A stretch of DNA of 64,000 bases from IMG/VR virus record IMGVR_UViG_3300033067_001757, positions 1 to 64,000 of that record; one strand, given 5' to 3'. Position 1 is the stretch's first letter. The number at the start of each line of letters is the position of its first letter. The stretch comes from a virus. Its lineage: Duplodnaviria; Caudoviricetes. Below, in pieces: positions 16,225-31,225 of this stretch. A program made the position numbers and the translations under genes. The notes under the pieces are model-generated. The model worked only from the letters and a program-made list of their open reading frames with translations, did not search any database and was not told where the DNA came from.

Positions 16225-16310
16225 CGGAGGTAACAGGAGTTCAACCTGTACGACTTTTTAGGGTCCTGGCGATTTTCAAGATCGTGTACCTCTGTCAACT
16301 GGGTACCTCC
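16225..16310 (-). tRNA. tRNA-Ser(TGA)
   Basis: Acceptor GGAGGTA/TACCTCC, G73, anticodon arm CGAT-CT TGA AA-ATCG, long variable arm; atypical D arm. Confidence 0.8.
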
Positions 16311-16316
16311 GTATAA

Positions 16317-16817: not shown

Positions 16818-16898
16818 TTAGTTCTTTATTAGTACATATATAAATATGTACCAATGCGGTTCAAAACGATTCGAACCAGAACTTTTTTATAGAACTTG

Positions 16899-16986
16899 CG
16901 GAGAACAGAGTAATCGAAACTCACCCAACTGAATGGGTTCTCGTTTAGCAAACGAGCGGGGATACCACTTCCCTCCTTTACTCTCC
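16899..16986 (-). tRNA. tRNA-Ser(GCT), probable 8/4 fold
   Basis: CTCGT-TT GCT AA-ACGAG, long variable arm, G73, acceptor GGAGAGTA/TGTTCTCC, T stem GAGT/ACTC. Confidence 0.85.
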
Positions 16987-16992
16987 AAATTG

Positions 16993-17076
16993 TAACCCAG
17001 GTAGTATTCGAAACTACTCACCCAAATGGGATGTGATTTACAGTCACACGCACCTCTCCTACTGTGCCGCTGAATT
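16993..17076 (-). tRNA. tRNA-Tyr(GTA)
   Basis: TGTGA-CT GTA AA-TCACA, long variable arm, TTCGAAT T loop. Confidence 0.88.
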
Positions 17077-17082
17077 ATACTG

Positions 17083-17169
17083 TAGCGGTAACCGGCTTCG
17101 AACCGGTACGGACATTGCTGTCCAAGAGTGTTTAAGACTCTCATGTGCTTCCAATTTCATCATACCGCT
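17083..17169 (-). tRNA. tRNA-Leu(TAA)
   Basis: AGCGGTA/TACCGCT, AGAGT-CT TAA AC-ACTCT, long variable arm, GGTTCGAAGCC. Confidence 0.92.
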
Positions 17170-17174
17170 ATTAG

Positions 17175-17251
17175 TAGCCCGAGTCGGAGTCGAACCGACA
17201 GACGATCAATACATCCTAAGTGTATCCGCTTTCCCGTTTGCGTACCAGGCC
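17175..17251 (-). tRNA. tRNA-Leu(TAG), short variable arm
   Basis: ATACA-CT TAG GA-TGTAT, GTCGGTTCGACTCCGAC. Confidence 0.9.
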
Positions 17252-17253
17252 AT

Positions 17254-17288
17254 AAAAACAAAAAACCCTCACCGGTTAAATGAGGGCT
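17254..17288 (-). terminator. attenuator terminator A
   Basis: AGCCCTCA-TTTAACCGG-TGAGGGTT then TTTTGTTTTT, ending 2 nt before tRNA-Leu. Confidence 0.85.
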
Positions 17289-17322
17289 AAAAAAAAAAAT
17301 ATCTCTTAGTTTAGTACATACC

Positions 17323-17391
17323 TCATCCCCAATTATCGTCCAGATAACTTAACGAACTCAAGGAGAGATATAGATTAATATTGTGTTTCAT
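17323..17391 (-). CDS. leader peptide A, MKHNINLYLSLSSLSYLDDNWG (Leu/Ser/Tyr sensor)
   Basis: ATG..TGA, 22 aa, 11 consecutive L/S/Y codons; lies between promoter and terminator. Confidence 0.85.
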   Translation of the reverse strand: MKHNINLYLSLSSLSYLDDNWG

Positions 17392-17395
17392 AATG

Positions 17396-17427
17396 CGAAG
17401 GTAGCTATAATTATTGAGACTACCAAA
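17396..17427 (-). promoter_or_regulatory. Bacteroidota sigma-A type promoter of tRNA array A
   Basis: TTTG-N20-TACCTTCG, 4 nt before the leader ATG. Confidence 0.7.
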
Positions 17428-17499
17428 TATAAATATACAGAGGTCTACAAAAACGATTAAAATAATTACCATTGTTCATCCCAGTTTTTATTTGCATGT

Positions 17500-17931
17500 T
17501 TGTATAATTTATGTGATAATAAATATTGGAGATGTACAGAAAATATCTATTTTTGTAAAATGAAATTATTTATAATTATAATAATCACTATTCTCGTGTT
17601 GATGGTATTACCCATTATTATCCATGAACAGTATTATGGAGAACCGGTTTCATATGGTCATTATTATCTACAGAAGAACTATAAAGACGCTTCTGCGTTG
17701 TTTACTATATTGACAAAAAAAGATACCGATATATTTCTATGGTGCTGTGATTGTATTTTATTCTATGCAAAAAAACTAAATGTATCATATGAAGAATTGA
17801 ACATATATGTTTTCATCATATGGCAACCATATCTGATAATTTTATTTGGATACTTGTATATATCAGTATTGATTAAAAACATCAAACTTCGACGAAAGTT
17901 GCATCAAACAATTCCAGTAACAAATCCGTAA
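17500..17931 (+). CDS. membrane protein (true start may be the later Met, MKLFIII)
   Basis: Two TM segments, SYEELNIYVF motif. Confidence 0.6.
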   Translation: MYNLCDNKYWRCTENIYFCKMKLFIIIIITILVLMVLPIIIHEQYYGEPVSYGHYYLQKNYKDASALFTILTKKDTDIFLWCCDCILFYAKKLNVSYEELNIYVFIIWQPYLIILFGYLYISVLIKNIKLRRKLHQTIPVTNP

Positions 17932-19288
17932 GATTTTCTCGTATTCTTACAACTGGTTTACCATTTTTCATTTTAACTACAATTTTACCGTCTGCACCAA
18001 CGGTATAAACAGGTTTAGCTACATGTGATCCATGTTTAGCCGACTTGTCATCATCGTCTTCTTTAGATTTAATATTAGAAACAGTATCTACTTTTTTCGA
18101 TACATCTGGTGTAGGAGAAGATCCTGTAGTTGTGACTGATTTATTTTTGTCTGGTTTAGATTGTTTACTGGTAGCTATATCTCCAAAAGAATCTTTTGAT
18201 TTTTTGTGTTTAGTACCTTCTTTACCAGCCATCATATTAGACGAAAGAGTGATAGTGATCTTTTTTCCTTTAGATGAGGTGTCTGGATTTTCAAGATAAG
18301 CAATATGTCTTACGGCCTGATATGGTGTAGCATTATCTTTTTTCATAACATACACAATTTTCTCCATATAATTCATATCTTTTAGATCATCTGATGTCAC
18401 TGTCTTAGAAGCACCTTTTGAAAAATCATATGTATCTGTAATTGTGTATGAACTATCTGCGTTTTTTTGATACGTAAACCTTCCCAATGTAGTTGCTACA
18501 CCGAATGCATCATTTGATGTAAGAGTTTTAAATGCTGTTGTGAGTGTACTTGGTCCGACATTATTTGCATATATATTCGCAACATCTCCACCATAATCTT
18601 TATATTCGGTAGCACCACGATTAACTTTACCTGTACGCTTAATGGCATTATTTATAACATCTGCCATTATTTTCTTCTGAGCCTTACTAAAATCTTTACC
18701 TGATAAGTCTTTAGTCAAATATAACTGTGCAACGTTTGGAAAAGCCTTTCTGATATACGAAGAAACACCGGAAGCTATTTTATCACCTATACCAGAATTA
18801 GCTTTATTTGTAGAATCAAATTCAGCTTTACCGGCTTTGCCAGTACTATCTATAGTTATTTTATTACCCGTGGTTGAAAATACATCTCCATTACTGATGC
18901 GGCAATTAAAAATGGCCAATTTTTTAGCAGCGGTAGCAGCTTTTTTAAAGTCTGTAGGATTAGATTTTTTAGCAATATTCTTCTTTACCGTTATATGAAA
19001 ATCTTTCTTTTTATCAACTTTCTGTTCCATATCCTTGTAAAGAGAATCGATATCCTGTGGACTCATTGAATTAAGCTTGTTACCAAAATTAGTCTTGCTT
19101 ATATTTTCTATGTCCTGTTTGTGTGAATTATCCATCTGAGATAACTTCACTCCTCCTATAGATAAAGAACTTAAAAACAAGCTTAGTCCGGAAAAAATAT
19201 TTAAAAATAATCCTTCCTCAATATTTTCTTCATTTTCCGGTATTTTTAGTAAATCTAATTCTTCAAGTAATTTAGTAAATGTTTGCAT
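17882..19288 (-). CDS. Lys/Ser/Asp-rich protein, possible virion internal protein
   Basis: 468 aa ORF; N-terminal LLEE motif; C-terminal motif shared with 14430-15230. Confidence 0.75.
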   Translation of the reverse strand: MQTFTKLLEELDLLKIPENEENIEEGLFLNIFSGLSLFLSSLSIGGVKLSQMDNSHKQDIENISKTNFGNKLNSMSPQDIDSLYKDMEQKVDKKKDFHITVKKNIAKKSNPTDFKKAATAAKKLAIFNCRISNGDVFSTTGNKITIDSTGKAGKAEFDSTNKANSGIGDKIASGVSSYIRKAFPNVAQLYLTKDLSGKDFSKAQKKIMADVINNAIKRTGKVNRGATEYKDYGGDVANIYANNVGPSTLTTAFKTLTSNDAFGVATTLGRFTYQKNADSSYTITDTYDFSKGASKTVTSDDLKDMNYMEKIVYVMKKDNATPYQAVRHIAYLENPDTSSKGKKITITLSSNMMAGKEGTKHKKSKDSFGDIATSKQSKPDKNKSVTTTGSSPTPDVSKKVDTVSNIKSKEDDDDKSAKHGSHVAKPVYTVGADGKIVVKMKNGKPVVRIRENLTDLLLELFDATFVEV

Positions 19289-19327
19289 ATATAATATAAA
19301 TATAAGAAATATCCCAAATTAATTCGG

Positions 19328-19399
19328 GGTATAAGGTCGGTAACGGTCCGACTTCTTCTCCTTCACAGGGAGACGCTTCACTTTAAAGCTTCAAACACC
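19328..19399 (-). tRNA. tRNA-His(GTG)
   Basis: TCTCC-CT GTG AA-GGAGA, G-1:C73; two T-T mismatches in the acceptor; T loop ACCGTTA. Confidence 0.8.
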
Positions 19400-19409
19400 A
19401 TGTTTCAGA

Positions 19410-20090
19410 TTATTTCCTTTTGAAACGTTGCCAATAACCTTTAGGTGGTTTATCAACGTTTAATTTATGATATCTTCTTCGAACAGTATTCGCTGAAACC
19501 TTATACATCTTTGCAATATTATTTAATGAAAACTCCCATATTAATTTACTCAATTCTTCATCTGAAATGATAAATTTTGGTTCATATATTCGCTTACTCT
19601 TATTATCAACCTTGATCTTTTTATTATTTCGTCCGGCGAAAGTATTAGTTTGTCTGTGGCAGTTAGGGCAAAGAAATCTCAAATTTTCAATTTCACAATT
19701 AGTCCAATCCCCATCTATATGATCAATATCTAAAGTTATATATTCATCTAACCATTTTGACAAAGTACATACACCACACTTATATTCAAAACCTTTCTCC
19801 AGCAAAGCTCGTTTTAATGTTTTATGGTTCACTCTATATTCCTTATTCCTTGTGAGAATATCATCCGCTTGTATCCTTTTTTGATAATTAGGATTTCTTT
19901 TTCCGGCATATACACTTTGTCCTAAAAAATGTGAAACATCTATATCATATTCTTTTATACGATTTCTAATTAATTCATAACTACCACCAGATGCTCTGGC
20001 TCCCAATCTTCTGCAAACATCGGCATATGTTATAGATTCTTTCACAACCGATTCTATAAGTTCTCTTGTATAAGTCCTCTTAGTTGACAT
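19410..20090 (-). CDS. HNH homing endonuclease
   Basis: CGVC ... LDIDHIDGDWTN ... NLRFLCPNCH. Confidence 0.92.
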   Translation of the reverse strand: MSTKRTYTRELIESVVKESITYADVCRRLGARASGGSYELIRNRIKEYDIDVSHFLGQSVYAGKRNPNYQKRIQADDILTRNKEYRVNHKTLKRALLEKGFEYKCGVCTLSKWLDEYITLDIDHIDGDWTNCEIENLRFLCPNCHRQTNTFAGRNNKKIKVDNKSKRIYEPKFIISDEELSKLIWEFSLNNIAKMYKVSANTVRRRYHKLNVDKPPKGYWQRFKRK

Positions 20091-20159
20091 TATTATATTT
20101 ATAATAAATATCAGAGAGGTATAAGCGAAATTTAAAAAGAATGCACTTATACATTATAG

Positions 20160-20230
20160 ATGTCCCGCTTCGAATTGAACGAAGATCACAAGATTCAAAT
20201 TCTTGTATAATACCATTATACCACAAGACA
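20160..20230 (-). tRNA. tRNA-Gln(TTG)
   Basis: TGTCTTG/CGGGACA, CAAGA-AT TTG AA-TCTTG. Confidence 0.85.
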
Positions 20231-20236
20231 ATTTTG

Positions 20237-20308
20237 AGCCCAGTACCGGTCTCAAACCGATCTCTTCTGATTACAGGTCAGTTGCTTCATCAACAAAGCT
20301 TACCAGGC
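20237..20308 (-). tRNA. tRNA-Thr(TGT)
   Basis: GCCTGGT/ACTGGGC with C2-G71; CTGA-CC TGT AA-TCAG (C33). Confidence 0.78.
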
Positions 20309-20314
20309 TAAAAG

Positions 20315-20386
20315 TAGTACCACTTGGAGTCGAACCAAAACCTTCTGTTCTTCAGACAGACGCGCAGACCACTACGCCATAGCACC
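20315..20386 (-). tRNA. tRNA-Phe(GAA)
   Basis: TCTGT-CT GAA GA-ACAGA, GGTTCGACTCC. Confidence 0.9.
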
Positions 20387-20392
20387 ATATAG

Positions 20393-20465
20393 AAGTGGAA
20401 GAGGAACTCGAAGCCTCGCGTACCGGGGTTGCAATCCGGAGCATTACCATCTTTGCTATTCCACT
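20393..20465 (-). tRNA. tRNA-Cys(GCA)
   Basis: AGTGGAA/TTCCACT, U73, CCGGA-TT GCA AC-CCCGG. Confidence 0.87.
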
Positions 20466-20471
20466 ATGTTG

Positions 20472-20542
20472 CAAGGGATACCCGAATCAAACAGGTACCA
20501 ACTGGGTTGGAAGCAGTTGTACTATCATTATACTAATCCCCC
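20472..20542 (-). tRNA. tRNA-Trp(CCA)
   Basis: GGGGGAT/ATCCCTT, G73, ACTGC-TT CCA AC-CCAGT. Confidence 0.82.
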
Positions 20543-20550
20543 GTAAAAAT

Positions 20551-20643
20551 AACACACAAGGCCAACGACTCTCTCGTTGTGGATTCGGTAGAGCTTAGTA
20601 ACCTCATGCTTACATAAGTCGTATGCTCTCACCTTGTATGTCC
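20551..20643 (-). ncRNA. unidentified three-way-junction RNA inside tRNA array B
   Basis: Closing stem ACATACAAGG/CCTTGTGTGT; inner stems AGAGC/GCTCT and CAACGA/TCGTTG. Confidence 0.5.
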
Positions 20644-20646
20644 TCG

Positions 20647-20720
20647 TCGAGATTTAAGGCATCGAACCTTACTGATATCTTGGTCCCAAACCAAGTGACC
20701 CACCTTGAGTCCGAATCTCG
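20647..20720 (-). tRNA. tRNA-Pro(TGG)
   Basis: CGAGATT/AATCTCG, CTTGG-TT TGG GA-CCAAG. Confidence 0.9.
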
Positions 20721-20727
20721 ATATAAT

Positions 20728-20757
20728 AAAAAACCCCGAAACATTTCTGTCGGGGCT
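20728..20757 (-). terminator. attenuator terminator B
   Basis: AGCCCCGA-CAGAAATGTT-TCGGGG then TTTTTT, 7 nt before tRNA-Pro. Confidence 0.85.
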
Positions 20758-20785
20758 ATTAAACTTATGTTAGATTATAGATGTT

Positions 20786-20881
20786 TTACCATCCCATTCC
20801 ATCATACATATGTTTGTCCCCACCGAACGGTTGTGTCGGCCAGAAGGTAAATTGACATGTATGTGTAAATGTGTTGTTCAT
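20786..20881 (-). CDS. leader peptide B, MNNTFTHTCQFTFWPTQPFGGDKHMYDGMGW (Thr/Phe/His/Cys/Gln/Trp/Pro sensor)
   Basis: ATG..TAA, 31 aa, A-rich upstream context, 16 consecutive codons from the seven amino acids of array B. Confidence 0.88.
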   Translation of the reverse strand: MNNTFTHTCQFTFWPTQPFGGDKHMYDGMGW

Positions 20882-20896
20882 TGTTTTGTTTTTTAA

Positions 20897-21105
20897 AAGA
20901 TAAACAGCCGTCAAATCCCGCTGAAGTTATCTATTGTTAAAGTGTAACAGGGATCGCTTCTTTCAGCGTCAGACATACAAGATGTTCTGTTACAAAGAGT
21001 AATCGTGATTCGTGGTACACTTTTAAGTGCCTTCGCTCAAACGTCCTGGACGTACAATTACTAAAATTTAGATAATCACCAATACGTTACCGGTGAGGTT
21101 ATCTG
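20897..21105 (-). ncRNA. unidentified multi-domain structured RNA upstream of leader B
   Basis: Four consecutive stems: AGATAA..TCACC/GGTGA..TTATCT, AGTAATTG/CGATTACT, TGTAACAG/CTGTTACA, AGATAA/TTATCT; no ORF in the track. Confidence 0.45.
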
Positions 21106-21122
21106 TTAATAAATATCAAAGA

Positions 21123-21362
21123 CTATTGTAAAACGGTTATTGCTCTTGCGTACCTACCATAATTATCGTTTACAGAACCGGTTCGGAATGCTATATTCTT
21201 TTCACCGAGTCCAACCTCGTATTCTTTTAAAGACATTGTCAGTTCTTCAAATATCCGTTTCTGTCTCTCAGGATTTAAATACATAAAAACATAATATGTT
21301 TTACAATGATCACACTGTTCTGGACACTTACTATTTCCTTCGATATCACGCTGGCATTTCAT
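21123..21362 (-). CDS. hypothetical Cys-rich protein
   Basis: 79 aa, directly after the promoter at 21372-21403. Confidence 0.55.
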   Translation of the reverse strand: MKCQRDIEGNSKCPEQCDHCKTYYVFMYLNPERQKRIFEELTMSLKEYEVGLGEKNIAFRTGSVNDNYGRYARAITVLQ

Positions 21363-21371
21363 AATATGAAG

Positions 21372-21403
21372 CGAAGGTAGTATTTAATTAGAGAACTTCC
21401 AAA
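21372..21403 (-). promoter_or_regulatory. Bacteroidota sigma-A type promoter
   Basis: TTTG-N20-TACCTTCG. Confidence 0.65.
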
Positions 21404-21404
21404 T

Positions 21405-21695
21405 TTATTTTCCATTCATCTTGCCCAGATATACACCGAGACTATCCTTCAATTGCAGACTTTGTACCGTCAGGTCATTAATCTGGAGACTGTAGATCAG
21501 TACAGAATCAATCTTCTGCGCTTTACCGGCATCGATCATCAGCTTCGTCTTATCAATAATTTGGAATGCGTTTTGAGTCAGAGCCAGGGAATAATAATTT
21601 ACCTGCTGCAGGTTGTATGCACCTTGTGTTGAGGATAGTACTGAGCATGACCCAAGGATGAATGGGATTACGAGTAATGTGATGAGTTTTTTCAT
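21405..21695 (-). CDS. lipoprotein
   Basis: MKK + hydrophobic stretch + LGSC lipobox. Confidence 0.75.
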   Translation of the reverse strand: MKKLITLLVIPFILGSCSVLSSTQGAYNLQQVNYYSLALTQNAFQIIDKTKLMIDAGKAQKIDSVLIYSLQINDLTVQSLQLKDSLGVYLGKMNGK

Positions 21696-21786
21696 AGATG
21701 AAAATTTGTATTAATATTTGTATATATAAATATCAAGGAGTCTATATTCTGGCAGCAGAATGGGATTTGTGTCGGAGATTAGTATG

Positions 21787-21859
21787 TGGAAAACAGTTGA
21801 TTCGAACAACATCTCCCGGTTTGCAAAACCAGTGCTTTTGCCAATTAAGCTATGCTCCC
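21787..21859 (-). tRNA. tRNA-Ala(TGC)
   Basis: G3:U70, CTGGT-TT TGC AA-ACCGG; bulged acceptor with a 4-bp T stem. Confidence 0.85.
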
Positions 21860-21865
21860 ATTATG

Positions 21866-21938
21866 TTGAAGAAGTGAATTATGCTATCACAACCTCTGAA
21901 GTATCAGTTCAGCGCTCTGACTGTTGAGCTATTCTTCA
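21866..21938 (-). tRNA. tRNA-Ile(GAT)
   Basis: TGAAGAA/TTCTTCA, CTGAA-CT GAT AC-TTCAG; atypical T loop. Confidence 0.85.
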
Positions 21939-21945
21939 ATGTATG

Positions 21946-22018
21946 TTGTCCCTACCGGTTATGATCCGGTTACCTAATGATTATGAGTCATTTGCTCTAC
22001 CGATTGAGCTAAGGGACT
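21946..22018 (-). tRNA. tRNA(CAT), Ile2 (lysidine) or elongator Met
   Basis: AATGA-CT CAT AA-TCATT; lacks the three initiator G-C pairs. Confidence 0.85.
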
Positions 22019-22068
22019 GTAAAACAGAATAAAGAGTTGCGCATCGTTGAGAGGTTCTTACTCTAATG

Positions 22069-22142
22069 CGGACTATACCGGTAACAATCCGGTCATCTCT
22101 CCCGTGACAGGGGAGCGTCTTCATCGTGCAGACTCATAGTCC
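22069..22142 (-). tRNA. tRNA-Asp(GTC)
   Basis: GGACTAT/ATAGTCC, G73, CTCCC-CT GTC AC-GGGAG. Confidence 0.88.
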
Positions 22143-22147
22143 TTATG

Positions 22148-22220
22148 TATCCCCAATGGAATTCGAATCCATATCATCTCATAGAAAGTGAGATATCCTA
22201 AGCCATTAGACGATGGGGAC
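22148..22220 (-). tRNA. tRNA-Glu(TTC)
   Basis: GTCCCCA/TGGGGAT, TCTCA-CT TTC TA-TGAGA. Confidence 0.88.
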
Positions 22221-22289
22221 TGGTTGGCATCCTAAACTCCCGTGCAAGGGATAAACCTGGCCATTTAGGTTTTGTTCTACCGGCAACCA
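22221..22289 (-). ncRNA. unidentified long hairpin abutting tRNA-Glu
   Basis: Nested stems TGGTTG/CAACCA, CCTAAA/TTTAGG, TCCC/GGGA. Confidence 0.35.
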
Positions 22290-22306
22290 CAAGTGTCTGG
22301 CACCAG

Positions 22307-22519
22307 CTACTTCCATTGTGTCTTTCTGTTATGCTTCCAGGACTTGTATTGTCTCACCTGGTACATCATAAGCTCTTTACGTTTCCATCTCCTTACTGGG
22401 CTGCTACGGTAGTAATTTACACCTTCGTCCCAGTATCTGTCCATGAACTTATCATTAGTCACAATCTTATATTCCTTTCTGCAGGTTGTGTGACTACTGA
22501 TACTTCTGTGTGGTTTCAT
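22307..22519 (-). CDS. small basic protein within the tRNA array
   Basis: 70 aa, Arg/Lys/Trp-rich, ends KSWKHNRKTQWK. Confidence 0.7.
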   Translation of the reverse strand: MKPHRSISSHTTCRKEYKIVTNDKFMDRYWDEGVNYYRSSPVRRWKRKELMMYQVRQYKSWKHNRKTQWK

Positions 22520-22537
22520 TGTTGTAGGTTTTAGTAC

Positions 22538-22564
22538 CTACAAGAAATCGTATGTTTTTTTCAT
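22538..22564 (-). CDS. 8-aa upstream ORF MKKTYDFL
   Basis: Its TAG lies in the 5' arm of hairpin TTGTAGGT-ACTAAA-ACCTACAA just upstream of the next ATG. Confidence 0.5.
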   Translation of the reverse strand: MKKTYDFL

Positions 22565-22627
22565 AACGTAAATAATGTTTTACATGGTATACCCATCTGT
22601 GTAAAAGATATTTTACAAACATATCCA

Positions 22628-22897
22628 TTATTCTAAATCTGGATACTCACTATAAAAACTAAGCTCATACATATTTTCACCGGTTTTTATCTGTCTGTAA
22701 TATAAATAATCAGGTGATATACCTTTATAATTAACCCTGTTAGCATAAACAGAATCCTTTACGAGACCTGTTTCGGTTATGTTCATATTTTCCAGATACT
22801 GTTTTTCATTACGAAATTTTTCAATCACATCAGGATTAGCACTCTTTAAAAAACTCGCATTGGCCAACGTTGAATCAATCTTTTCAAGTCTTGTCAT
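22628..22897 (-). CDS. hypothetical protein; N-terminus resembles the ValRS C-terminal tRNA-binding coiled coil
   Basis: LEKIDSTLANASFLKSANPDVIEKFRNE resembles the ValRS motif KLxNxxFxxxAPxxVVxKE. Confidence 0.5.
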   Translation of the reverse strand: MTRLEKIDSTLANASFLKSANPDVIEKFRNEKQYLENMNITETGLVKDSVYANRVNYKGISPDYLYYRQIKTGENMYELSFYSEYPDLE

Positions 22898-22980
22898 TGT
22901 GAAATAAATTTAAAAGAAGCTACCAGAGCTACGTGTTTCTTTTTGTTCCCGTTCCTGGTCTTCGCTAAAGCTTCTCTAAT

Positions 22981-23028
22981 TGGAGCCGAGGGGCAGTGTG
23001 CCCACTGTGCATTCCCTTTCAACTCGGC
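22981..23028 (-). ncRNA. tRNA-like minihelix ending in encoded CCA
   Basis: GCCGAG ... CTCGGC T CCA, 48 nt, no anticodon arm. Confidence 0.4.
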
Positions 23029-23608
23029 ATGTAAATTTTAGGATAAAGATAATCCTCTCGAACCCCTACCAAATCCAATATTTTTACCACAAAATGTATC
23101 CGTTTGTGTGTGACAATTTGGACATAATAATCGAACATTATCAGGAAAATTATTACCGGAATCACCATCTACATGATCAACCTGTAAAGTGATAGGCTTT
23201 TCATTCCATTCAAAAATTCCACAAGATTCACAGTTATATCCTCGTTCATAAGCAATTAGTTTCCGTAATGTATTCCGTTTATTAATCTGCCCATTTTTAT
23301 ATTTAACTAATGATACAGTTTCATGCATATGAATTTTATGACATTTAACACTGCAAAATTTATTGCTTTTATTTGACTGGGAGACACATGTTTTTCCGCA
23401 GATTATACAATCGAAAAATTTCTTTGGTTTCTTATTTTGTTTGCTCGCACAACTTCTTGAACAATGTTTTGGAAATTTACTCTTCTCTAACTGTGTTGGT
23501 GTTAAAGATACGCTATACTCTTTGTTACATCCTTTACAATGGCAACTATATACCCCTTTGCACAAACTTTTTAGAGAACTTATCAAATTTATCGTCTTTT
23601 AGTGTAGA

Positions 23609-23899
23609 TTGGTACTTTCAAAAAATAAATACTGCTATATGAAAGTTCTAAAGGAGTATATTACTTATGAAGGTAAAAACTTTGGTGAATCAATTAACGA
23701 TGGTATTGCACAAGTTGAGATTATTAAATTAAGTGAAAAGCTTTCAAGTTTTACCAAAGATATATTTAATTCAAAAACTGGTTTTATTGATATAAAATCA
23801 AATGGTGCAATTGAAATTGAAGACTTTCCCGATGATCTGCAAAATTCTATCATAGACTATCTTAAAATTTCCAAGGATAATCATTATACGAAACCTTGA
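23609..23899 (+). CDS. IS passenger, hypothetical protein
   Basis: ORF inside the TIRs; probable start at MKVLKE. Confidence 0.55.
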   Translation: MVLSKNKYCYMKVLKEYITYEGKNFGESINDGIAQVEIIKLSEKLSSFTKDIFNSKTGFIDIKSNGAIEIEDFPDDLQNSIIDYLKISKDNHYTKP

Positions 23900-24037
23900 G
23901 CCTTATATCTTTATCATATAAAATTCTAACAATCTCCCACAAAGACGTTTTTTGTTCTTTTGTTAAGTGACAAGTAACTTCAATGGGTATACCGATAACT
24001 TTGGTTACTTTGAATTCTTCGGTGTTTATCATGAATA

Positions 24038-24238
24038 CTAATTAAGTAAATTTACTCCACCGTTACGGTAAATAGAAGAATCAAATTCTTTAATACAATC
24101 TCTTATCATATTAATTTGAGCATAATCGGATGTTTCCATTGAAATAATCTGATTAATTAAAGAACAACACTTTTTTGATTTTGATTCCAAACTTTGCTTT
24201 ACCGAGACTATATCCTTTTTTACATTCTCTAATTCCAT
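24038..24238 (-). CDS. IS passenger, hypothetical protein
   Basis: 66 aa, preceded by the ATATTTATA motif. Confidence 0.5.
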   Translation of the reverse strand: MELENVKKDIVSVKQSLESKSKKCCSLINQIISMETSDYAQINMIRDCIKEFDSSIYRNGGVNLLN

Positions 24239-24294
24239 ATACTTTGTTTTAGTATATATAAATATATAGAGGTAGTGATTATCAAATTAAAATA

Positions 24295-24492
24295 TCAGAA
24301 AGCGTATATGTAAATAATTATAATCATACCGATTATAGTTGCAAAATTCATCCACACCATTATAGACTTCTCTTTCATCTTTTCTTTACCACTAATAGCA
24401 TTTCTGGTATTTTTTAAAGCTTCTTTCAAAGAGGTCATTCCGTAGAATATCAGACTTATTACTATTAATAAACCGATGAGAATATATGGCAT
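24295..24492 (-). CDS. IS passenger, two-TM small membrane protein (paralog of 10962-11153)
   Basis: Shared GKEK-containing loop between two TM helices. Confidence 0.6.
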   Translation of the reverse strand: MPYILIGLLIVISLIFYGMTSLKEALKNTRNAISGKEKMKEKSIMVWMNFATIIGMIIIIYIYAF

Positions 24493-24549
24493 GGTAAAGA
24501 ATTGGATAATTAAAATTGACGGTACTGATATTTATATGAAAGTACAAAT

Positions 24550-24750
24550 ATGATAACCTCTTTTGATGAATTAGAATCCCAAGGCGCTAAATTCTATTAT
24601 GACCCGCATCAAGATAAGGAAATTGACCCACCTCACTATTATGCAATTGATAATAAATGTTGGACACTTATTAATATAGATGAAGATGGAACTCCGGAAT
24701 ACATGGGAATACAATTTGAATTGATCGCGTATCCAGAATTATTTACTTAG
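24550..24750 (+). CDS. IS passenger, small acidic protein
   Basis: 66 aa, preceded by GATATTTATAT. Confidence 0.55.
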   Translation: MITSFDELESQGAKFYYDPHQDKEIDPPHYYAIDNKCWTLINIDEDGTPEYMGIQFELIAYPELFT

Positions 24751-24973
24751 TTTTTTCAACTTCACTCATTGAGTATTCGACAAATTCGTTTTTAGTATTT
24801 TTAAATACATGTTTGTATACTTTTTGAAATTGCTTTTTGGATTGGTCTACATAAATTAAAATTTCACCTGTTTCTTTAAGTTTAAATTTATCACCTGCTT
24901 TAATAACAGTCTCTGTAGATTTTACAATGTTTACTTTCTTGCCAGCCCTAATACGTATTTTAAATGTTTAAGA

Positions 24974-25714
24974 TTAATCCTTAACGCAACGAACAGAAAA
25001 GCCCCAGGTCTTTTGAATCTCGTCCGCGTAGATGGTGCCACCGCCATAGTTTATGTAGTGGTACCAGGCGTAGTTAAGCAAGGTATACTCCGTAGTACTC
25101 CACCAGAAACCTGTGATACCAGCACCGTAGAAAGATTCGATGTAATAATCATTGAAGTGATGGTAGCCACCCGGAAGCGCTGTGAATCCGCTGCTGTTAG
25201 TAGCATCGGCGTTAGGGGCATACCATAAACCGGTCCCAGCTTCTATGGTTCCGGTTGATTTCATCTTGCCACCCGCTACTGCATAGCCGCCTAAATAAGT
25301 AGATAATGTTGTCCATTCTGCCTCACTTGGTACATGCCAACCTTCAGGGGCTAGTCCCCTTGGATCATGTACAGCATACCAGTTGTATAACTTGCCATAA
25401 ACAGCACCCGTGGCAGAATCGTTATTGTACCAGCACCATGCACCGGTAGTTAAGGAAGCCCATTTGTGACGGTCTTTTACCTGTGGTATCTTGTCCCCAT
25501 TTCTGTAACGGGTTACGTCAAGGTTCTTTTTCATCCAAACTTGAGTACCTATTCTAACAGTGTTACCAGCAAGAACTTTATTATCGTTAAGTACATCTTG
25601 GCTTATACTTTCACTTGTAATACCTGAAGTTTGAACGGTGCTGTTTTCTTTTTTACAGGAGATTGATAGTGATATCAGCAAAGCTGAAATACTTATTGTG
25701 ATTATTGTTTTCAT
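24974..25714 (-). CDS. FISUMP (Fibrobacter succinogenes major paralogous) domain lipoprotein
   Basis: SISC lipobox; IGTQVWMKKNL, YGKLYNWYA, PEGWHVPS..EW, SGFTALPGG, GFSVRCVKD. Confidence 0.92.
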   Translation of the reverse strand: MKTIITISISALLISLSISCKKENSTVQTSGITSESISQDVLNDNKVLAGNTVRIGTQVWMKKNLDVTRYRNGDKIPQVKDRHKWASLTTGAWCWYNNDSATGAVYGKLYNWYAVHDPRGLAPEGWHVPSEAEWTTLSTYLGGYAVAGGKMKSTGTIEAGTGLWYAPNADATNSSGFTALPGGYHHFNDYYIESFYGAGITGFWWSTTEYTLLNYAWYHYINYGGGTIYADEIQKTWGFSVRCVKD

Positions 25715-25744
25715 TGTAGGTGATATTTATATAAAATAAAGTTT

Positions 25745-25948
25745 ATGATAAAAATAAAGTTTAATGTAGACAAGAAAAAAGAGGGGGATTTAAATGAGAA
25801 AGTTACAATGTCCGTAGAAACTAATGAAATAGAAAATTCTTCTGATACGGCATTGATTGAAAGTATAATACAATGGTCAGCAGAACACCTTGAATATTTA
25901 CAGAAAAAAATAAGTCAATGGAATGATGTTTTAAATCAACCTCGTTAA
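25745..25948 (+). CDS. IS passenger, hypothetical protein
   Basis: 67 aa, preceded by GATATTTATATA. Confidence 0.55.
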   Translation: MIKIKFNVDKKKEGDLNEKVTMSVETNEIENSSDTALIESIIQWSAEHLEYLQKKISQWNDVLNQPR

Positions 25949-26247
25949 ATTGTAGGCAGCATAATACCATTTTCAGACAAGAAATCTGTAAATTTTTTGA
26001 TATGGAAAAAGCCACCACTGACATATAAAAAGTAAACATCCAAGTCGTCTTTGGAAAATCTATCCGAGGTTACTTTTTCATCTTTCAAATTCAATAAAGC
26101 GAGTTCATCAATGTACTTTGCGAACAAATCACTTCTGGACGGAGCTATTATTAGTCTTGCAATCACTAAATTTTTGTTTACACCAACTCTAGTTGAAACC
26201 AGACTTCTTAATTTTTCTTTTATTGATTTTGCTTGTTCTAAGTTCAT
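25945..26247 (-). CDS. IS passenger, hypothetical protein
   Basis: 100 aa, convergent 4-nt overlap. Confidence 0.55.
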   Translation of the reverse strand: MNLEQAKSIKEKLRSLVSTRVGVNKNLVIARLIIAPSRSDLFAKYIDELALLNLKDEKVTSDRFSKDDLDVYFLYVSGGFFHIKKFTDFLSENGIMLPTI

Positions 26248-26359
26248 TTTAAAGGATTTAGTAGCACAAGATACAAAAATCTATTAGACATACTTTAACA
26301 ATATTAGGTAGTACTTTGAACAAAACATGTCTATCTTTGTGTAACAAATAAAGAGATAT

Positions 26360-27286
26360 ATGTTCAACTCATTTAAGAATCTTACAGAAGTTATACTCCA
26401 CTTTTCTACTGATAAAGTTTGCAGGGAATTCTTAGAGACCAAGAGATGGAACGGTACTCCGACCTGTCCTCATTGTGGTTGTGATAAGTGGTATAAGTTG
26501 AATGATGGTAAAACATACAAGTGCGGTAACAAAGAGTGTTACAAGAAATATACCGTTACGGTAGGAACGATCTATGAGAATACAAACGTTCCTCTTACTA
26601 AATGGTTTGCTGCTGTTTATATAATCACCGCTCATAAGAAAGGAATAAGCAGTATCCAGTTGTCTAAAGACATTGGTGTTACTCAAAAGACTGCCTGGTA
26701 TATGAATCATAGAATCAGACAGATGGTTGGAGAAAGGCATCCAGAAGCATTAGAGAACACTGTAGAAGTGGATGAAACCTATGTAGGTGGGAAGATGAAG
26801 AACAAACACAAGAAGGTTAGAGCGGAAGCACATGCTAACAATATAAGCCATACAGATAACAAGACAGGTGTAATGGGTTTCTTGGAAAGAGGAGCAGGTG
26901 TACGGTTAAATGTTATTGATAAAACCAAGACATTTAAAGAAATGGTTAAGGGTAATATTGCTTTAGAAGCTATTGTAATTACAGATAGCCTAAATGCTTA
27001 TACCGGCCTTGCTAAGGAGTTTAAAGGTCATGAGGTGGTTAACCATAGCGAAGATGAATATGTACGTGGTGAGTTCCATACAAACACTATAGAGGGCTTC
27101 TTTTCATTCCTAAAGAGAAGTATCTACGGTTGTTACCACAATGTAAGTCCTAAGCATTTACAGAGATATTGTAATGAGAATAGCTACCGGTACAATACAA
27201 GAGATTTGAAAGATGGTCAGAGATTTGAGATAACTTTGTCTAACATTGAAGGAAGACTTCCATATAAAACTCTAATCGGTAAATAA
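26360..27286 (+). CDS. IS1595 (ISXO2-like) DDE transposase
   Basis: CPHCG..C Zn ribbon, KKGISSIQL, VEVDETYVGG, ITD, HTNTIEGFF, HLQRYCNE..YRYN. Confidence 0.96.
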   Translation: MFNSFKNLTEVILHFSTDKVCREFLETKRWNGTPTCPHCGCDKWYKLNDGKTYKCGNKECYKKYTVTVGTIYENTNVPLTKWFAAVYIITAHKKGISSIQLSKDIGVTQKTAWYMNHRIRQMVGERHPEALENTVEVDETYVGGKMKNKHKKVRAEAHANNISHTDNKTGVMGFLERGAGVRLNVIDKTKTFKEMVKGNIALEAIVITDSLNAYTGLAKEFKGHEVVNHSEDEYVRGEFHTNTIEGFFSFLKRSIYGCYHNVSPKHLQRYCNENSYRYNTRDLKDGQRFEITLSNIEGRLPYKTLIGK

Positions 27287-27460
27287 TGGCAAAGGCAAAG
27301 AAGGCAACAAAGCCTAAAAAGATAAGACAGGAGAACTATGAAACTAAGTTAAAGGTGAATGCATCTTTTGAAGATGTGATAGGATGGAGTGTAGAAGGTA
27401 ATCCTAAGCCAAAGACTAAGCCATTGAAGAAGTAGACTGTAGATATGTTTAAGAGATCAT

Positions 27461-27486
27461 TCCCGCTTTATGAGCGGGTTTTTTTG
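27461..27486 (+). terminator. intrinsic terminator after the transposase operon
   Basis: CCCGCT-TTATG-AGCGGG followed by a T run. Confidence 0.75.
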
Positions 27487-27531
27487 TTTCCTGCAGTGTA
27501 GATGTTGTGAATTTAGTTATATTTTAGATTC

Positions 27532-28020
27532 ATGAATACTAAACGAATAATTGCTATTAGAAAATTAGACAATGTTTTAAAAATTCTATCAGATTCAACC
27601 GAAGCCGAAATTCAAAATAATGTTCCGATTGCCATACTTGACGTTTTTGAAATTAGTGAATTTTATAAAAACGCTCATAAAACTGAATTGAAAAATCATG
27701 AATTTAATCTTATTATAGATAAGTTATTAAAGGATGACTATATATTCAAGGAACAAATTGATAAATCACAACCACCACGATTTGGTATTAACTATATTGG
27801 TTATATATTTAACTCTGAAGGTGGTTATGAACAAAAAATGATTAATGACGACGACGAAAATACGCGGATGGATAAGATAGAAGAGAATCAAAAATTCCAT
27901 AGGCGTGCCCTGACTTGGCTAACATCTCTCGTCGCTGTCGGGACGTTAATAGCTGCGATTTATTATTCAGTAGAACTCTTGAAATATTTTCATGTTTTAC
28001 CTGATCCTTTTCATTGCTGA
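27532..28020 (+). CDS. IS passenger, protein with a C-terminal TM helix
   Basis: 162 aa, possible winged-helix N-part, hydrophobic C-terminus. Confidence 0.65.
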   Translation: MNTKRIIAIRKLDNVLKILSDSTEAEIQNNVPIAILDVFEISEFYKNAHKTELKNHEFNLIIDKLLKDDYIFKEQIDKSQPPRFGINYIGYIFNSEGGYEQKMINDDDENTRMDKIEENQKFHRRALTWLTSLVAVGTLIAAIYYSVELLKYFHVLPDPFHC

Positions 28021-28343
28021 GTTCTATATCTCTTTTCTTAAATAAATTTATAAGCCATTTCATAGTATATTGATTTTTAAAAAGTTGCGAATTCTTGTCC
28101 TAAGCTGTATATAGTTGCCTTTACAATTGAGTGTAATATCTAATCTCTTAACTGTAAACTTCCCATTATTGAATCTTGTTTTATTAAATTCAAAATTCGG
28201 ATTACTGGTACACCTACTAACATGATATGCAAACTGTTGATGTTTATCATAATTTATTATCTCCAAACAATACTTACATCTCTTTTCCATTTATTGCTGC
28301 TTTATAATAAATATCAGCAATGAGTAAAAATGAAAATATTATG

Positions 28344-28415
28344 AGCGATAATGCAGTAACAATCTGCATACCCCGATTTGGAAGACCGGTATGTATTCAT
28401 CAACACCTTTATCGC
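28344..28415 (-). tRNA. tRNA-Gly(TCC)
   Basis: GCGATAA/TTATCGC, U73, CCGGT-CT TCC AA-ATCGG. Confidence 0.87.
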
Positions 28416-28516
28416 ATATACATTTGGCTAACTTTAAAATCTTATACTCAGCCAAAACTATCTTCCAACGTTACCCGGACCAGACGACCGACTGCCTGGA
28501 TCCGGGGTTTCGTTTG

Positions 28517-28593
28517 TGGTTGCGAAGATCGGGTACGATCCGATAGTCTCAGGGATATGAGCCCCGTGTGTTCTCCATTTACACCACCTCACA
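28517..28593 (-). tRNA. tRNA-Met(CAT), initiator-like
   Basis: CGGGG-CT CAT AT-CCCTG (three G-C pairs), T1-A72, encoded CCA. Confidence 0.85.
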
Positions 28594-29134
28594 ATTTTAT
28601 TAAACCATTATCAAACTCCCAATGACAATTAGGACATAATCCTATTAAATTATCTATATGATTGATTATAGAAATCAGTGTATAATCATCAAAATCAGAT
28701 ACAGCTTTAATGTGTGCTATTTCAAAATGCTTATCATACCCACATAAATAACAACATTTAGATTTATCACTGCGATAGTAAGTCGCTTCGGCATGACTAC
28801 GTATTGACGATCGAGCACTCTGCCAATTTTTCTGTGTTTCAAATATGTTACCTTTTGTTCTATATATTAAAAGATCGGCTCTCTCTTTTTTAGGTGGCTT
28901 TTCTTTTACTTTTATAACTCTCACTCTCTTTTTATTATTAAATATTGCTGCACAAGATCTTGAACAGAATTTTTTTACTTTGGTTTCGGCGGGTTTTCTA
29001 TTATCTGGAATCATAATCATTTCATTACAATTCAAACAATAATTAGGATTCGCATAATATTCATCTACCCTTTTCTTTCTAATAATCGGTGCCATTTTCT
29101 GACCACCCATTGCGTGTGCGTGTTTCGGTAACAT
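28589..29134 (-). CDS. HNH homing endonuclease
   Basis: FCSRSCA, CYLCG..EIAHIK..NHIDNLIGLCPNCHWEFD. Confidence 0.92.
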   Translation of the reverse strand: MLPKHAHAMGGQKMAPIIRKKRVDEYYANPNYCLNCNEMIMIPDNRKPAETKVKKFCSRSCAAIFNNKKRVRVIKVKEKPPKKERADLLIYRTKGNIFETQKNWQSARSSIRSHAEATYYRSDKSKCCYLCGYDKHFEIAHIKAVSDFDDYTLISIINHIDNLIGLCPNCHWEFDNGLIKL

Positions 29135-29244
29135 ATAGTTCTTCTATATAAATATCAGATACCTACAATTTCGAATACATTATCCGCAATTATTTTCAAA
29201 GAACTCTAAACTACCTCTCCAGTCCACCCCTGGAATATTTAAAG

Positions 29245-29320
29245 AGGGAAATCTCAGATTCGAACTGAGGATCTTTTGATTAACAGTCAAATGCATTGAG
29301 CCGGACTATGCTAACTTCCC
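29245..29320 (-). tRNA. tRNA-Asn(GTT)
   Basis: GGGAAGT/ATTTCCC, TTTGA-CT GTT AA-TCAAA, CTCAGTTCGAATCTGAG. Confidence 0.9.
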
Positions 29321-29321
29321 T

Positions 29322-29520
29322 TGCGGCTAAGCTTTTAATTACGAGTCTGGCTGTTAAGCCCTCTACGAAGGAGACCATCTACTGATGCTGCTCGACCCCT
29401 ATACGACAGATTTAAACAGGATTGTTAATCCTTTCGGACTGAAAACCGTTTCCCTTTTTAACTACACGCAGAAGAGTAACTGACCTATCTTTGATCACGA
29501 TTCGTGAACTGATAATAATT
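29322..29520 (-). ncRNA. unidentified ~200 nt non-coding spacer, candidate structured RNA
   Basis: No ORF in the track, higher GC than the flanking genes, AGTCC-GAAA-GGATT tetraloop hairpin, CGAG/CTCG stem. Confidence 0.35.
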
Positions 29521-29523
29521 GTG

Positions 29524-29594
29524 AACAGCAATCCGGATTTGAACCGAAACTAAGAAGTTAGAACCATCTTGTGCTTCCATTACACCATAGCTGC
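29524..29594 (-). tRNA. tRNA-Arg(TCT)
   Basis: D stem GTGT/GCAC fixes the register AGATG-GT TCT AA-CTTCT; A20 present. Confidence 0.8.
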
Positions 29595-29604
29595 TTATAC
29601 TTAG

Positions 29605-29676
29605 AAGGCCCTGGGAGAGTCGAACTCACCGTCTCGACGTTCGTAGCGCCGGATCCTTCCATTGAACGAAAGGCCC
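29605..29676 (-). tRNA. tRNA-Arg(ACG)
   Basis: GGGCCTT/AGGGCCT, CGGCG-CT ACG AA-CGTCG, A20. Confidence 0.9.
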
Positions 29677-29680
29677 TTGT

Positions 29681-29728
29681 TTAATCAAGAGTCCTTCGTC
29701 TTCGGTATATAAGCACTGTGTTGTTCAT
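29681..29728 (-). CDS. internal mini leader peptide MNNTVLIYRRRRTLD (Arg sensor)
   Basis: ATG..TAA fills the Val-Arg spacer; CGA AGA CGA AGG; stop 4 nt before tRNA-Arg. Confidence 0.72.
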   Translation of the reverse strand: MNNTVLIYRRRRTLD

Positions 29729-29741
29729 AATATTTTTGTTG

Positions 29742-29813
29742 TAGTCTCCAGGGATTCGAACCCTACCTCTAACTTTGTAAGAATTAGTTTCTGCCCGAGT
29801 GAATTATGAGACT
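29742..29813 (-). tRNA. tRNA-Val(TAC)
   Basis: AGTCTC/GAGACT, TAATT-CT TAC AA-AGTTA, AGGGTTCGAATCCCT; acceptor/T junction 1 nt short. Confidence 0.82.
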
Positions 29814-29821
29814 GTATTTCG

Positions 29822-29896
29822 TGACCCCGGTGAGGCTTGAACTCACAACCTTTCGGTTAAAAGCCGAAAGCTCTTATCCATTTGAGCTACAAGGTC
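29822..29896 (-). tRNA. tRNA-Lys(TTT)
   Basis: GACCTTG/CGGGGTC, TTCGG-CT TTT AA-CCGAA. Confidence 0.92.
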
Positions 29897-29897
29897 T

Positions 29898-29943
29898 AAA
29901 AAGAAAAAACCCGGTAAGCTCATTTTGGTTTGGCCTCCGGGTT
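29898..29943 (-). terminator. attenuator terminator C
   Basis: AACCCGGAGGC ... GCTTACCGGGTT then TTTTCTTTTT, directly before tRNA-Lys. Confidence 0.85.
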
Positions 29944-29965
29944 CGTATTAGTATCGTGTTATTAG

Positions 29966-30085
29966 TTACTTGCAATCATCTTCTTCACACAATATTTCAG
30001 AACCACAGAGGCGCTTAATGACATTATCATTGCCGCGTTCCGCTTCCATTGATCTTCCAACTATTATGTCTAAACTGTGTTGCAC
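29966..30085 (-). CDS. leader peptide C, (M)QHSLDIIVGRSMEAERGNDNVIKRLCGSEILCEEDDCK (Asp/Ile/Val/Gly/Arg/Met/Glu/Ala/Asn/Lys sensor)
   Basis: GTG..TAA, 39 aa, A-rich upstream; 19 of 20 consecutive codons from the ten amino acids of array C. Confidence 0.8.
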   Translation of the reverse strand: MQHSLDIIVGRSMEAERGNDNVIKRLCGSEILCEEDDCK

Positions 30086-30125
30086 TGAATTTGAATTGTA
30101 TTTGTTTGTTATTAATAAATATACG

Positions 30126-30157
30126 CAAAGCTACAAAAAGATTAGATAACTTCCAAA
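30126..30157 (-). promoter_or_regulatory. Bacteroidota sigma-A type promoter of tRNA array C
   Basis: TTTG-N20-TAGCTTTG, followed by an ATATTTAT motif. Confidence 0.75.
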
Positions 30158-30173
30158 TTTATTTTTAGAGACC

Positions 30174-30392
30174 TCATTTTTCACTTAAACATTTCAGTGC
30201 TGATTCTCTATGATGTTTAATTTCTTTAAATAACTGATTGATATGTTGATACGTTAGAATAACGCTTTGGTTACCTTGATCCAGAGATATACCATCATTA
30301 TAGTATTGTACATTGATTGGTGATTCCCAAACATCGTCTCCTGGATCACCCTGGTAGAATATGAAATTAGGTACTGTGGTTAGTGTTGTCAT
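30174..30392 (-). CDS. hypothetical protein
   Basis: 72 aa ORF, operon packing. Confidence 0.55.
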   Translation of the reverse strand: MTTLTTVPNFIFYQGDPGDDVWESPINVQYYNDGISLDQGNQSVILTYQHINQLFKEIKHHRESALKCLSEK

Positions 30393-30394
30393 GA

Positions 30395-31225
30395 TTATAT
30401 CTGTTTAACAAATTGAGGATACTCCAGCATCAGCTTCTGCAGGTACTCCGGATAATCTGAGATTGGATGAAATTTATAAGACACTCCAGGTCGGTTGAAA
30501 ACATCCTTACCTTTTTCCATGGCCTCTGTGATATTATGTTCGCTGGTGATATCAGGACGATTGAATTCTGTGTGTGCGAAGGATTGTATCTTGGCTTTAA
30601 TGGCTTCTACTGAGCCGCAGTAACTGAAATGCCATCCACCATTCTGAATACGATTGAAATGATTACGGTTGTCACGGAAGTATTGTGGTCCCTTTTCCTT
30701 GAATACTTTACCGGTAGTGATTACAGTACCGTTCCACAAAACGTCGTTACCTGTCTCACACCTGCAATTAAGGAAATAATAGTGAAACTGTTGAACTAAT
30801 GACAACGCTTCTACCTGAGATAGTGCTTGTAATATTTGCTCCTTCTGAGTAATAATGTCTGGTGATGGATATTCATCAAGGTCTGAGATTAGAGTGATTG
30901 CGTCATCGGGGATGATATCCTGTGCTAAGAGTAATCCCATGCGTTGCTGCTGCTCCAAGTACCATGATGAGTTTTCAGGGGAATATGTATCAACCTTATT
31001 GAATACGAGCGTATCATCTGTTTGATCTAACTGCAGATATACAATCTTATTCTTCCACTTGCTGAACCGTTCAATATTCTTTTCGAAGATATACTCTTTG
31101 TAGCCACCAGAATGTCGTCTATTCGATTCACAGACTATAAACAAGTCAACATATTCATCCAATAGTTTGAACCGCATCTCAGCCAAATCAACCTCTTGAA
31201 AAAAGCAAAATGTGTCTATCAGCAT
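30395..31225 (-). CDS. GT17 (MGAT3-like) N-acetylglucosaminyltransferase
   Basis: DTFCFFQEVDL, FIVCES, ISDLDE and GGWHFSY motifs. Confidence 0.88.
   Translation of the reverse strand: MLIDTFCFFQEVDLAEMRFKLLDEYVDLFIVCESNRRHSGGYKEYIFEKNIERFSKWKNKIVYLQLDQTDDTLVFNKVDTYSPENSSWYLEQQQRMGLLLAQDIIPDDAITLISDLDEYPSPDIITQKEQILQALSQVEALSLVQQFHYYFLNCRCETGNDVLWNGTVITTGKVFKEKGPQYFRDNRNHFNRIQNGGWHFSYCGSVEAIKAKIQSFAHTEFNRPDITSEHNITEAMEKGKDVFNRPGVSYKFHPISDYPEYLQKLMLEYPQFVKQI

Follow-up and report, generated by a model that had tools for sequence, protein, structure and literature searches.

A short open reading frame (ORF) at the head of a phage tRNA operon, here called leader C, is probably a ribosome-mediated (leader-peptide) transcription attenuator. 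The product under its control would be the tRNA set itself, so that the switch would exert negative feedback on decoding capacity. This reading had been put forward in the initial annotation of the region and is supported by several lines of evidence, namely the composition of the leader, the significance of its predicted antiterminator, compensatory changes in that duplex, an ATG start codon in the homologous leader of contig L011, and two further leaders, A and B, that precede other tRNA arrays of the same genome.

The DNA analyzed (hereafter “the window”) comes from an uncultured phage and covers the initial 64 kb of an IMG/VR virus record of 187,243 bp with a completeness rating of complete. 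G+C content is ~36%, the minus strand holds nearly all genes, and the genome encodes a family B DNA polymerase, a chaperonin, a thymidylate synthase, HNH endonucleases, and an IS1595 transposase. A Shine-Dalgarno motif was found upstream of 10% of long ORFs vs 8% of random positions, and the regions upstream of these ORFs are A-rich and G-poor, as is typical of translation starts in Bacteroidota. The minus strand carries 24 tRNA genes between 30 kb and 16 kb, together with the features collected in Table 1. Some features of this region stand apart from the leaders. A 15-codon mini-ORF with four consecutive Arg codons (29683-29728) lies between tRNA-Val and the two tRNA-Arg genes, and is also found in the related contig L008 (about 11914-11958). 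A 200-nt, ORF-free spacer (29321-29522), possibly a structured RNA, separates tRNA-Arg(tct) from tRNA-Asn; in L008 it is preserved in part, at about 71% identity. The tRNA-Ser(tga) gene at the end of array A escaped both ARAGORN and the Rfam gathering threshold, and is needed in the set because leader A contains TCN Ser codons.

Table 1 Features of the tRNA region in the window, on the strand indicated, and loci of two distant phages
Feature	Position	Strand	Remarks
Promoter-like motif TATATTTAT	30115..30123	-	29 nt 5' of leader C start
Leader ORF C	29966..30085	-	39 codons; GTG 30085, stop 29968-29966
Putative regulatory run, codons 6-25	30011..30070	-	19/20 codons in the ten-residue set
Predicted antiterminator 5' strand (region 2)	30000..30012	-	begins in codon 25
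Predicted terminator hairpin	29907..29944	-	-17.9 kcal/mol; ends 8 nt before tRNA-Lys
Terminator T tract	29898..29909	-	end 1 nt short of tRNA-Lys (29896)
tRNA-Lys(ttt), Val(tac), Arg(acg), Arg(tct)	29523..29896	-	tRNA-Lys begins at 29896
tRNA-Asn(gtt)	29244..29320	-	
HNH endonuclease gene 1	28589..29134	-	inside array; promoter-like motif at 29156; absent in L008
tRNA CAT and tRNA-Gly(tcc)	28343..28593	-	CAT 28517-28593; Gly 28343-28415
HNH gene 2, interrupted by IS1595	23038..28290	-	promoter-like motifs 28315 and 24266
IS1595 element	23541-28119		4579 bp, passenger genes, nested in HNH gene 2
Small ORFs (89 aa; 8-codon uORF; 70-aa basic protein)	22307..22897	-	between insertion and distal tRNAs
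Distal block Glu(ttc), Asp(gtc), CAT, Ile(gat), Ala(tgc)	21788..22220	-	
Leader B (Pro/Trp/Cys/Phe/Thr/Gln/His)	20728-21117	-	terminator abuts first tRNA of its array
Leader A (Leu/Tyr/Ser)	17254-17437	-	terminator abuts first tRNA of Leu, Leu, Tyr, Ser, Ser
tRNA-Ser(tga)	16225-16311		3' of 166-aa ORF, end of array A
tmRNA / tRNA-like loci of distant phages	L012:18190-19810; L012:14577-15062; L013:14653-15081		

The promoter-like motif in front of leader C sits between the upstream gene and the leader ORF, and its general form, [G/T]ATATTTAT, occurs at 54 sites in the genome vs about 19 expected, with an ORF start within 80 nt at 47 of them. The 25 nt upstream of the leader are A-rich, contain no G, and resemble the other starts of the phage. 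We infer that translation begins at GTG 30085, a choice supported by L011, which has ATG at the homologous codon and whose peptide aligns with that of the window from there.

The initial annotation had described a sensor for ten amino acids, and codons 6-25 indeed hold Asp, Ile, Val, Gly, Arg, Met, Glu, Ala, Asn, and Lys together with one Ser. These ten residues are the amino acids of the downstream tRNAs, from Lys through Ala; they are sampled within codons 1-25 and then again in the last six codons. To gauge chance, we scanned the six-frame translation of the 187-kb genome (374,482 codon positions) for stretches of 20 codons with ≥19 codons within the ten-residue set and all ten residues represented: there were two such places genome-wide, one being leader C, and a simple binomial gave 2e-4.

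Between the run and the first tRNA gene, two alternative structures are predicted that would compete for the same RNA segment. The terminator 5' arm (29944-29931) is common to the hairpin and to the antiterminator, and the long-range pairing originally proposed, of 30012-30000 with 29944-29933, was recovered at exactly these coordinates with its 12 pairs and one bulge. The duplex reaches -21.2 kcal/mol; when the upstream RNA was dinucleotide-shuffled 1000 times, the values were -9.6 +/- 2.1 and the energy of the natural sequence was never attained. In the minimum-energy fold, codons 1-12 also pair with codons 26-38, as a 1:2 protector would, and the whole-leader z of -1.42 is unexceptional.

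How the position of a ribosome would bear on this choice was explored with a co-transcriptional model, in which a 30-nt ribosome footprint was masked for each A-site codon and the transcript was folded before the terminator 3' arm exists. For these truncated transcripts, antiterminator probability was near 1 with the A site at codons 1-20 and 35-40, and the antiterminator was lost at A-site codons 24-31. A ribosome stalled at run codons 22-25 (Val, Ile, Lys, Arg) would cover region 2 and favor termination, and since the only early Lys codon is among these, sensing of Lys would be left to the final codon of the ORF. In full-length equilibrium folding with the ribosome masked, the antiterminator was preferred only at codons 2-8 and the terminator mostly elsewhere. 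We set this calculation aside as a model of the switch because we judged the attenuation decision to be co-transcriptional, and relied on the truncated transcript; the preference for the terminator at most ribosome positions at full-length equilibrium means that the attenuator model needs kinetic, co-transcriptional folding.

We propose the following sequence of events. Transcription would be initiated at a phage promoter lying some 30 nt ahead of the 39-codon leader, which a ribosome would translate while RNA polymerase heads for the terminator abutting tRNA-Lys. If a charged tRNA were scarce, its codon would be read slowly and the lagging ribosome would leave region 2 (30012-30000) free to pair with the terminator 5' arm, so that polymerase would read through into the tRNA array. 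Fast decoding, by contrast, would place the ribosome over region 2 as the arm emerges, the terminator would form, and tRNA synthesis would stop. Such negative feedback would match the supply of the tRNA set to demand, e.g., after depletion of host tRNAs.

We next consider homologues of the leader in other metagenomes. Megablast and blastn searches of the region against 50,697 phage records returned generic tRNA matches only, and IMG/VR searches with the 72-aa neighbor, the 468-aa protein, and the DNA polymerase B returned no syntenic relatives. Other candidates were discarded: contigs L004-L006, found in IMG/VR through the GT17 neighbor, have an unrelated context and no leader; a 17-nt leader pattern gave 21 IMG/VR matches, chance ones in GC-rich phages; and the large contigs L012 and L013, with GT17 proteins 53–55% identical, are organized differently and are without leader C. 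As a separate observation, these two distant large phages carry a tmRNA gene, and L012 has a series of tRNA-like genes with shared acceptor and T arms and long, differing middle insertions. Homologous contigs were reached via the two genes upstream of the leader, and one more via a pattern scan of metagenome contigs. The resulting comparison set of five consists of the window, its close relatives L007, L008, and L038, and the divergent L011 (63% identity in the neighboring glycosyltransferase).

The promoter-like motif, ORF, antiterminator, and terminator are all kept in L007, L008, L038, and L011, and the motif and its flanks are identical across the five sequences. Among the homologues, the antiterminator duplex ranges from -16.8 to -24.9 kcal/mol and beats 500 of 500 shuffles in each, with terminator energies of -16.0 to -18.6 kcal/mol. 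In L011, both strands differ at two antiterminator pairs (C-G for U-A and G-C for U-G), 12 pairs are retained, and the terminator 3' arm is altered to match its changed 5' arm. A covariation test gave 25/500 shuffles and has little power because only five homologues were found. At the peptide level, the close relatives show one substitution within the run, Asp to Val, which remains inside the ten-residue set, and five amino acid changes in the leader tail and codon 3. The Ser of the leader is encoded by different codon families in the window and L011.

These data also bear on a T-box-like alternative, in which the codon run would sense tRNA directly by pairing with the anticodons of uncharged tRNAs, free of any ribosome. 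Such a device would account for a run that lists the codons of the downstream tRNAs, and for the existence of a terminator/antiterminator pair. However, an Rfam search of 16500-31000 at E ≤ 1 returned only tRNA matches plus one weak, unrelated match, with no T-box or other family; Stem I and the T-box bulge are absent; the signal is confined to one reading frame with conserved start and stop; and Ser is maintained between the window and L011 through codons of different families. We therefore regard direct sensing as highly improbable.

Leader C is not the only such element in the genome. The array behind leader B comprises Pro, Trp, Cys, Phe, Thr, Gln, and His, and 16 of 16 consecutive leader codons are drawn from these seven residues (simple binomial 3e-11); in leader A, 11 of 11 consecutive codons are Leu, Tyr, or Ser (3e-8, likewise by simple binomial). 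Each of these two runs is unique in the genome in the six-frame scan, by which chance was rejected as the source of the three leaders. Between them, leaders A, B, and C cover all 20 amino acids without overlap, in exactly the division seen among the tRNA arrays. On the minus strand from 30200 to 16100 there are only three strong sites of a hairpin plus T run, each following a leader; the same scan gave one weak, A-T-rich hairpin/T-run site inside the IS. Compared with L007, the promoter motif of leader B stands ~180 nt further from its ORF.

A correspondence of the same kind was found in a different phage lineage. An IMG/VR scan for the promoter-like motif common to the five leaders gave 47 hits, three of which (L084, L088, and L089) represent an unrelated lineage that has only the promoter motif in common with leader C. 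There, the motif is followed by a 33-34-codon ORF, a terminator, and a tRNA array (L088:4058-8060). The L088 array consists of Trp, Ser, Ser, His, His, Ile, Ile, Met, Val, three Asn, and four Arg tRNAs, and codons 1-21 of its leader use exactly eight identities: Trp, Ser, His, Ile, Met, Val, Asn, and Arg. The leader thus mirrors its own array, which suggests that, where tRNAs are grouped differently, the leader has been rewritten accordingly. This lineage also has an ORF of roughly 60 aa between the terminator and the first tRNA.

The leaders of both lineages weigh on the possibility that there is no sensor at all, i.e., that the hairpin simply terminates transcription of the upstream genes or is a constitutive attenuator, and that the ORF is a chance occurrence or encodes a micro-protein with a different role. 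A GTG start without a Shine-Dalgarno motif would be in keeping with this, although the lack of that motif is the rule in this phage. So would L007, a deletion derivative that lost its Val, Arg, Arg, Asn, Met, and Gly tRNAs and retains an unchanged leader C, so that leader and array are not always matched; in this contig the first tRNA after the leader is chimeric, its 5' part coming from tRNA-Lys and its 3' part from tRNA-Glu (L007:8869-8960), and look-ups to extend L011 and L007 did not find a longer array. Against it, three leaders match their own arrays with a joint probability far below 1e-15 (simple binomials), leader C has a promoter-like motif of its own, downstream of the upstream gene, and the leader of the second lineage matches a different array. 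A region devoid of any sensor seems to us very unlikely.

A different question is whether the sensing of decoding is read out as transcription attenuation. When leaders A and B were tested for an antiterminator duplex against shuffles, none was significant, and the same was true of the L088 leader, so that the switch may work differently in these cases. The leader could then still be a decoding sensor, with an output in Rho access, RNase processing, or stability of the tRNA transcript, and the hairpin would act as a partial terminator of fixed strength or as a signal for processing. This is consistent with three leaders that mirror their arrays yet show no significant antiterminator, with the distance of 8 nt between the hairpin end and the RNase P site of tRNA-Lys, and with the terminator being favored at most ribosome positions in full-length equilibrium folding. 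However, the antiterminator of leader C is far beyond chance and is conserved with compensatory changes in the five sequences, which is hard to reconcile with a duplex that has no function. For leader C, we consider an output other than attenuation unlikely, and retain transcription attenuation as the preferred reading.

We then turned to the extent of the unit that leader C would control. The distal block (Glu, Asp, CAT, Ile, and Ala) lies beyond two HNH genes and an IS1595 element, and the initial annotation had argued that it lacks a leader-terminator of its own and that the two blocks probably form one transcription unit. The distal block is present as described, with no leader and no hairpin plus T run upstream, and the next promoter-like motif beyond it is at 21734, just past tRNA-Ala. 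Among the run residues outside the identities of the proximal block, 8 of 9 are Glu, Asp, Ile, or Ala (P = 0.002). The prediction of a single unit was further upheld by L008, which is free of both IS and HNH genes and in which the two blocks are about 0.9 kb apart. Its segment contains Lys, Val, Arg, Arg, Asn, Met, Gly, small ORFs, Glu, and Asp; its tRNA-Gly joins directly to sequence corresponding to window position 22618, and the part 22618-22265 is collinear between the two. From the promoter to the contig end, L008 has no further promoter-like motif and no further terminator, and in L007 the next promoter motif after leader C appears only past tRNA-Ala. These observations therefore support an ancestral single unit from tRNA-Lys to tRNA-Ala, into which the two HNH genes and IS1595 would have been inserted since.

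The IS1595 element has perfect 13-bp terminal inverted repeats and an 8-bp target duplication, from which the insertion looks recent. Its transposase matches Pfam DDE_Tnp_IS1595 (E = 1.6e-36), and excision of the element in silico restores a 221-codon HNH ORF. The inserted genes may have altered control of the array in this particular genome: [G/T]ATATTTAT motifs precede the HNH genes and an IS passenger gene, the one at 24266 being in front of a passenger gene that reads towards the distal block. Part of the array may thus escape the attenuator, and the motifs at 29156, 28315, and 24266 may let the distal tRNAs be transcribed independently.

The array contains two tRNAs with a CAT anticodon, which could not be named by similarity: phage tRNAs similar to one of them carry conflicting annotations (Met, Ile, Arg, or Val), and the other had no similar sequence in the phage collection. 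The distal one (21945-22018) has C4-G69, C5-G68, A37, A38, and A73, as well as an A1xA72 mismatch and an A-U-rich anticodon stem. We take C4-G69 and C5-G68 to be determinants of E. coli tRNA-Ile2 (TilS/IleRS), the identity first suggested for this tRNA, and the two ATA codons of leader C fit it. The CAT tRNA without similar phage sequences (28517-28593) has three consecutive G-C pairs beside the anticodon loop and a genome-encoded CCA, and looks initiator-like.

Leader-peptide attenuators are well known from amino acid operons, e.g., trpL, hisL, leuL, and pheL, and include multivalent examples in E. coli and Salmonella, i.e., ilvGMEDA (Leu/Val/Ile) and thr (Thr/Ile). Leader C resembles the ilv and thr attenuators in having a short, promoter-proximal ORF with the relevant codons, in sensing more than one amino acid, in placing an intrinsic terminator 5' of the first gene, and in an antiterminator that shares the terminator 5' arm and has its other strand within the ORF, so that ribosome position would decide the fold. 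Unlike them, it would control tRNAs rather than biosynthetic enzymes, and thus decoding capacity rather than amino acid supply; it samples ten amino acids, each one to three times, where the classical leaders have tandem runs of a few; its ORF runs 14 codons past region 2; and it is found in a phage, with no Shine-Dalgarno motif. Since the genes it would control are tRNAs, leader C falls outside the classical attenuator families.

Attenuation is also known for components of the translation apparatus. The leader of pheST (pheM) is an attenuator that controls phenylalanyl-tRNA synthetase. In bacilli, a His leader precedes hisS paralogues (PMC2965389). Leader C is like the pheST and hisS leaders in that attenuation would act on a part of the translation apparatus and not on a biosynthetic pathway, but those leaders address one amino acid and a protein gene, whereas leader C lists the identities of a set of tRNA genes. 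With T-box riboswitches, the proposed mechanism has in common that tRNA status is sensed and a terminator or antiterminator is chosen accordingly; T-boxes, however, bind uncharged tRNA directly and do not need translation, and leader C matches no T-box model. Full-text literature searches turned up no account of tRNA genes controlled by leader-peptide attenuation.

If leader C works as proposed, classical attenuation would extend from amino acid supply to the decoding machinery. The composition of leaders would also offer a sequence rule for the boundaries of tRNA operons in uncultured phages, a rule that here correctly predicted that two blocks 6 kb apart form one unit, and the compact leader part could serve as a sensor for the availability of chosen tRNAs. 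For the phage itself, we lean slightly towards a broader reading, in which the 24 tRNA genes would constitute three decoding-speed regulons, with the leaders partitioning the 20 amino acids, in a circuit that supplies tRNAs on demand, e.g., when anticodon nucleases or host shut-off deplete host tRNAs. Such control would be a general and evolvable rule of phage tRNA arrays rather than peculiar to one phage, since lineages with other tRNA groupings have leaders rewritten to match. The purpose of phage tRNA genes is debated between codon compensation and escape from tRNA-targeting host defenses (PMC10264068). Their regulation has been little addressed so far. That a leader names the tRNAs encoded behind it implies that the phage gauges decoding speed and supplies tRNAs as they are required. 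On-demand supply, if true, would make phage tRNA function directly testable, by asking which stresses open the switch.
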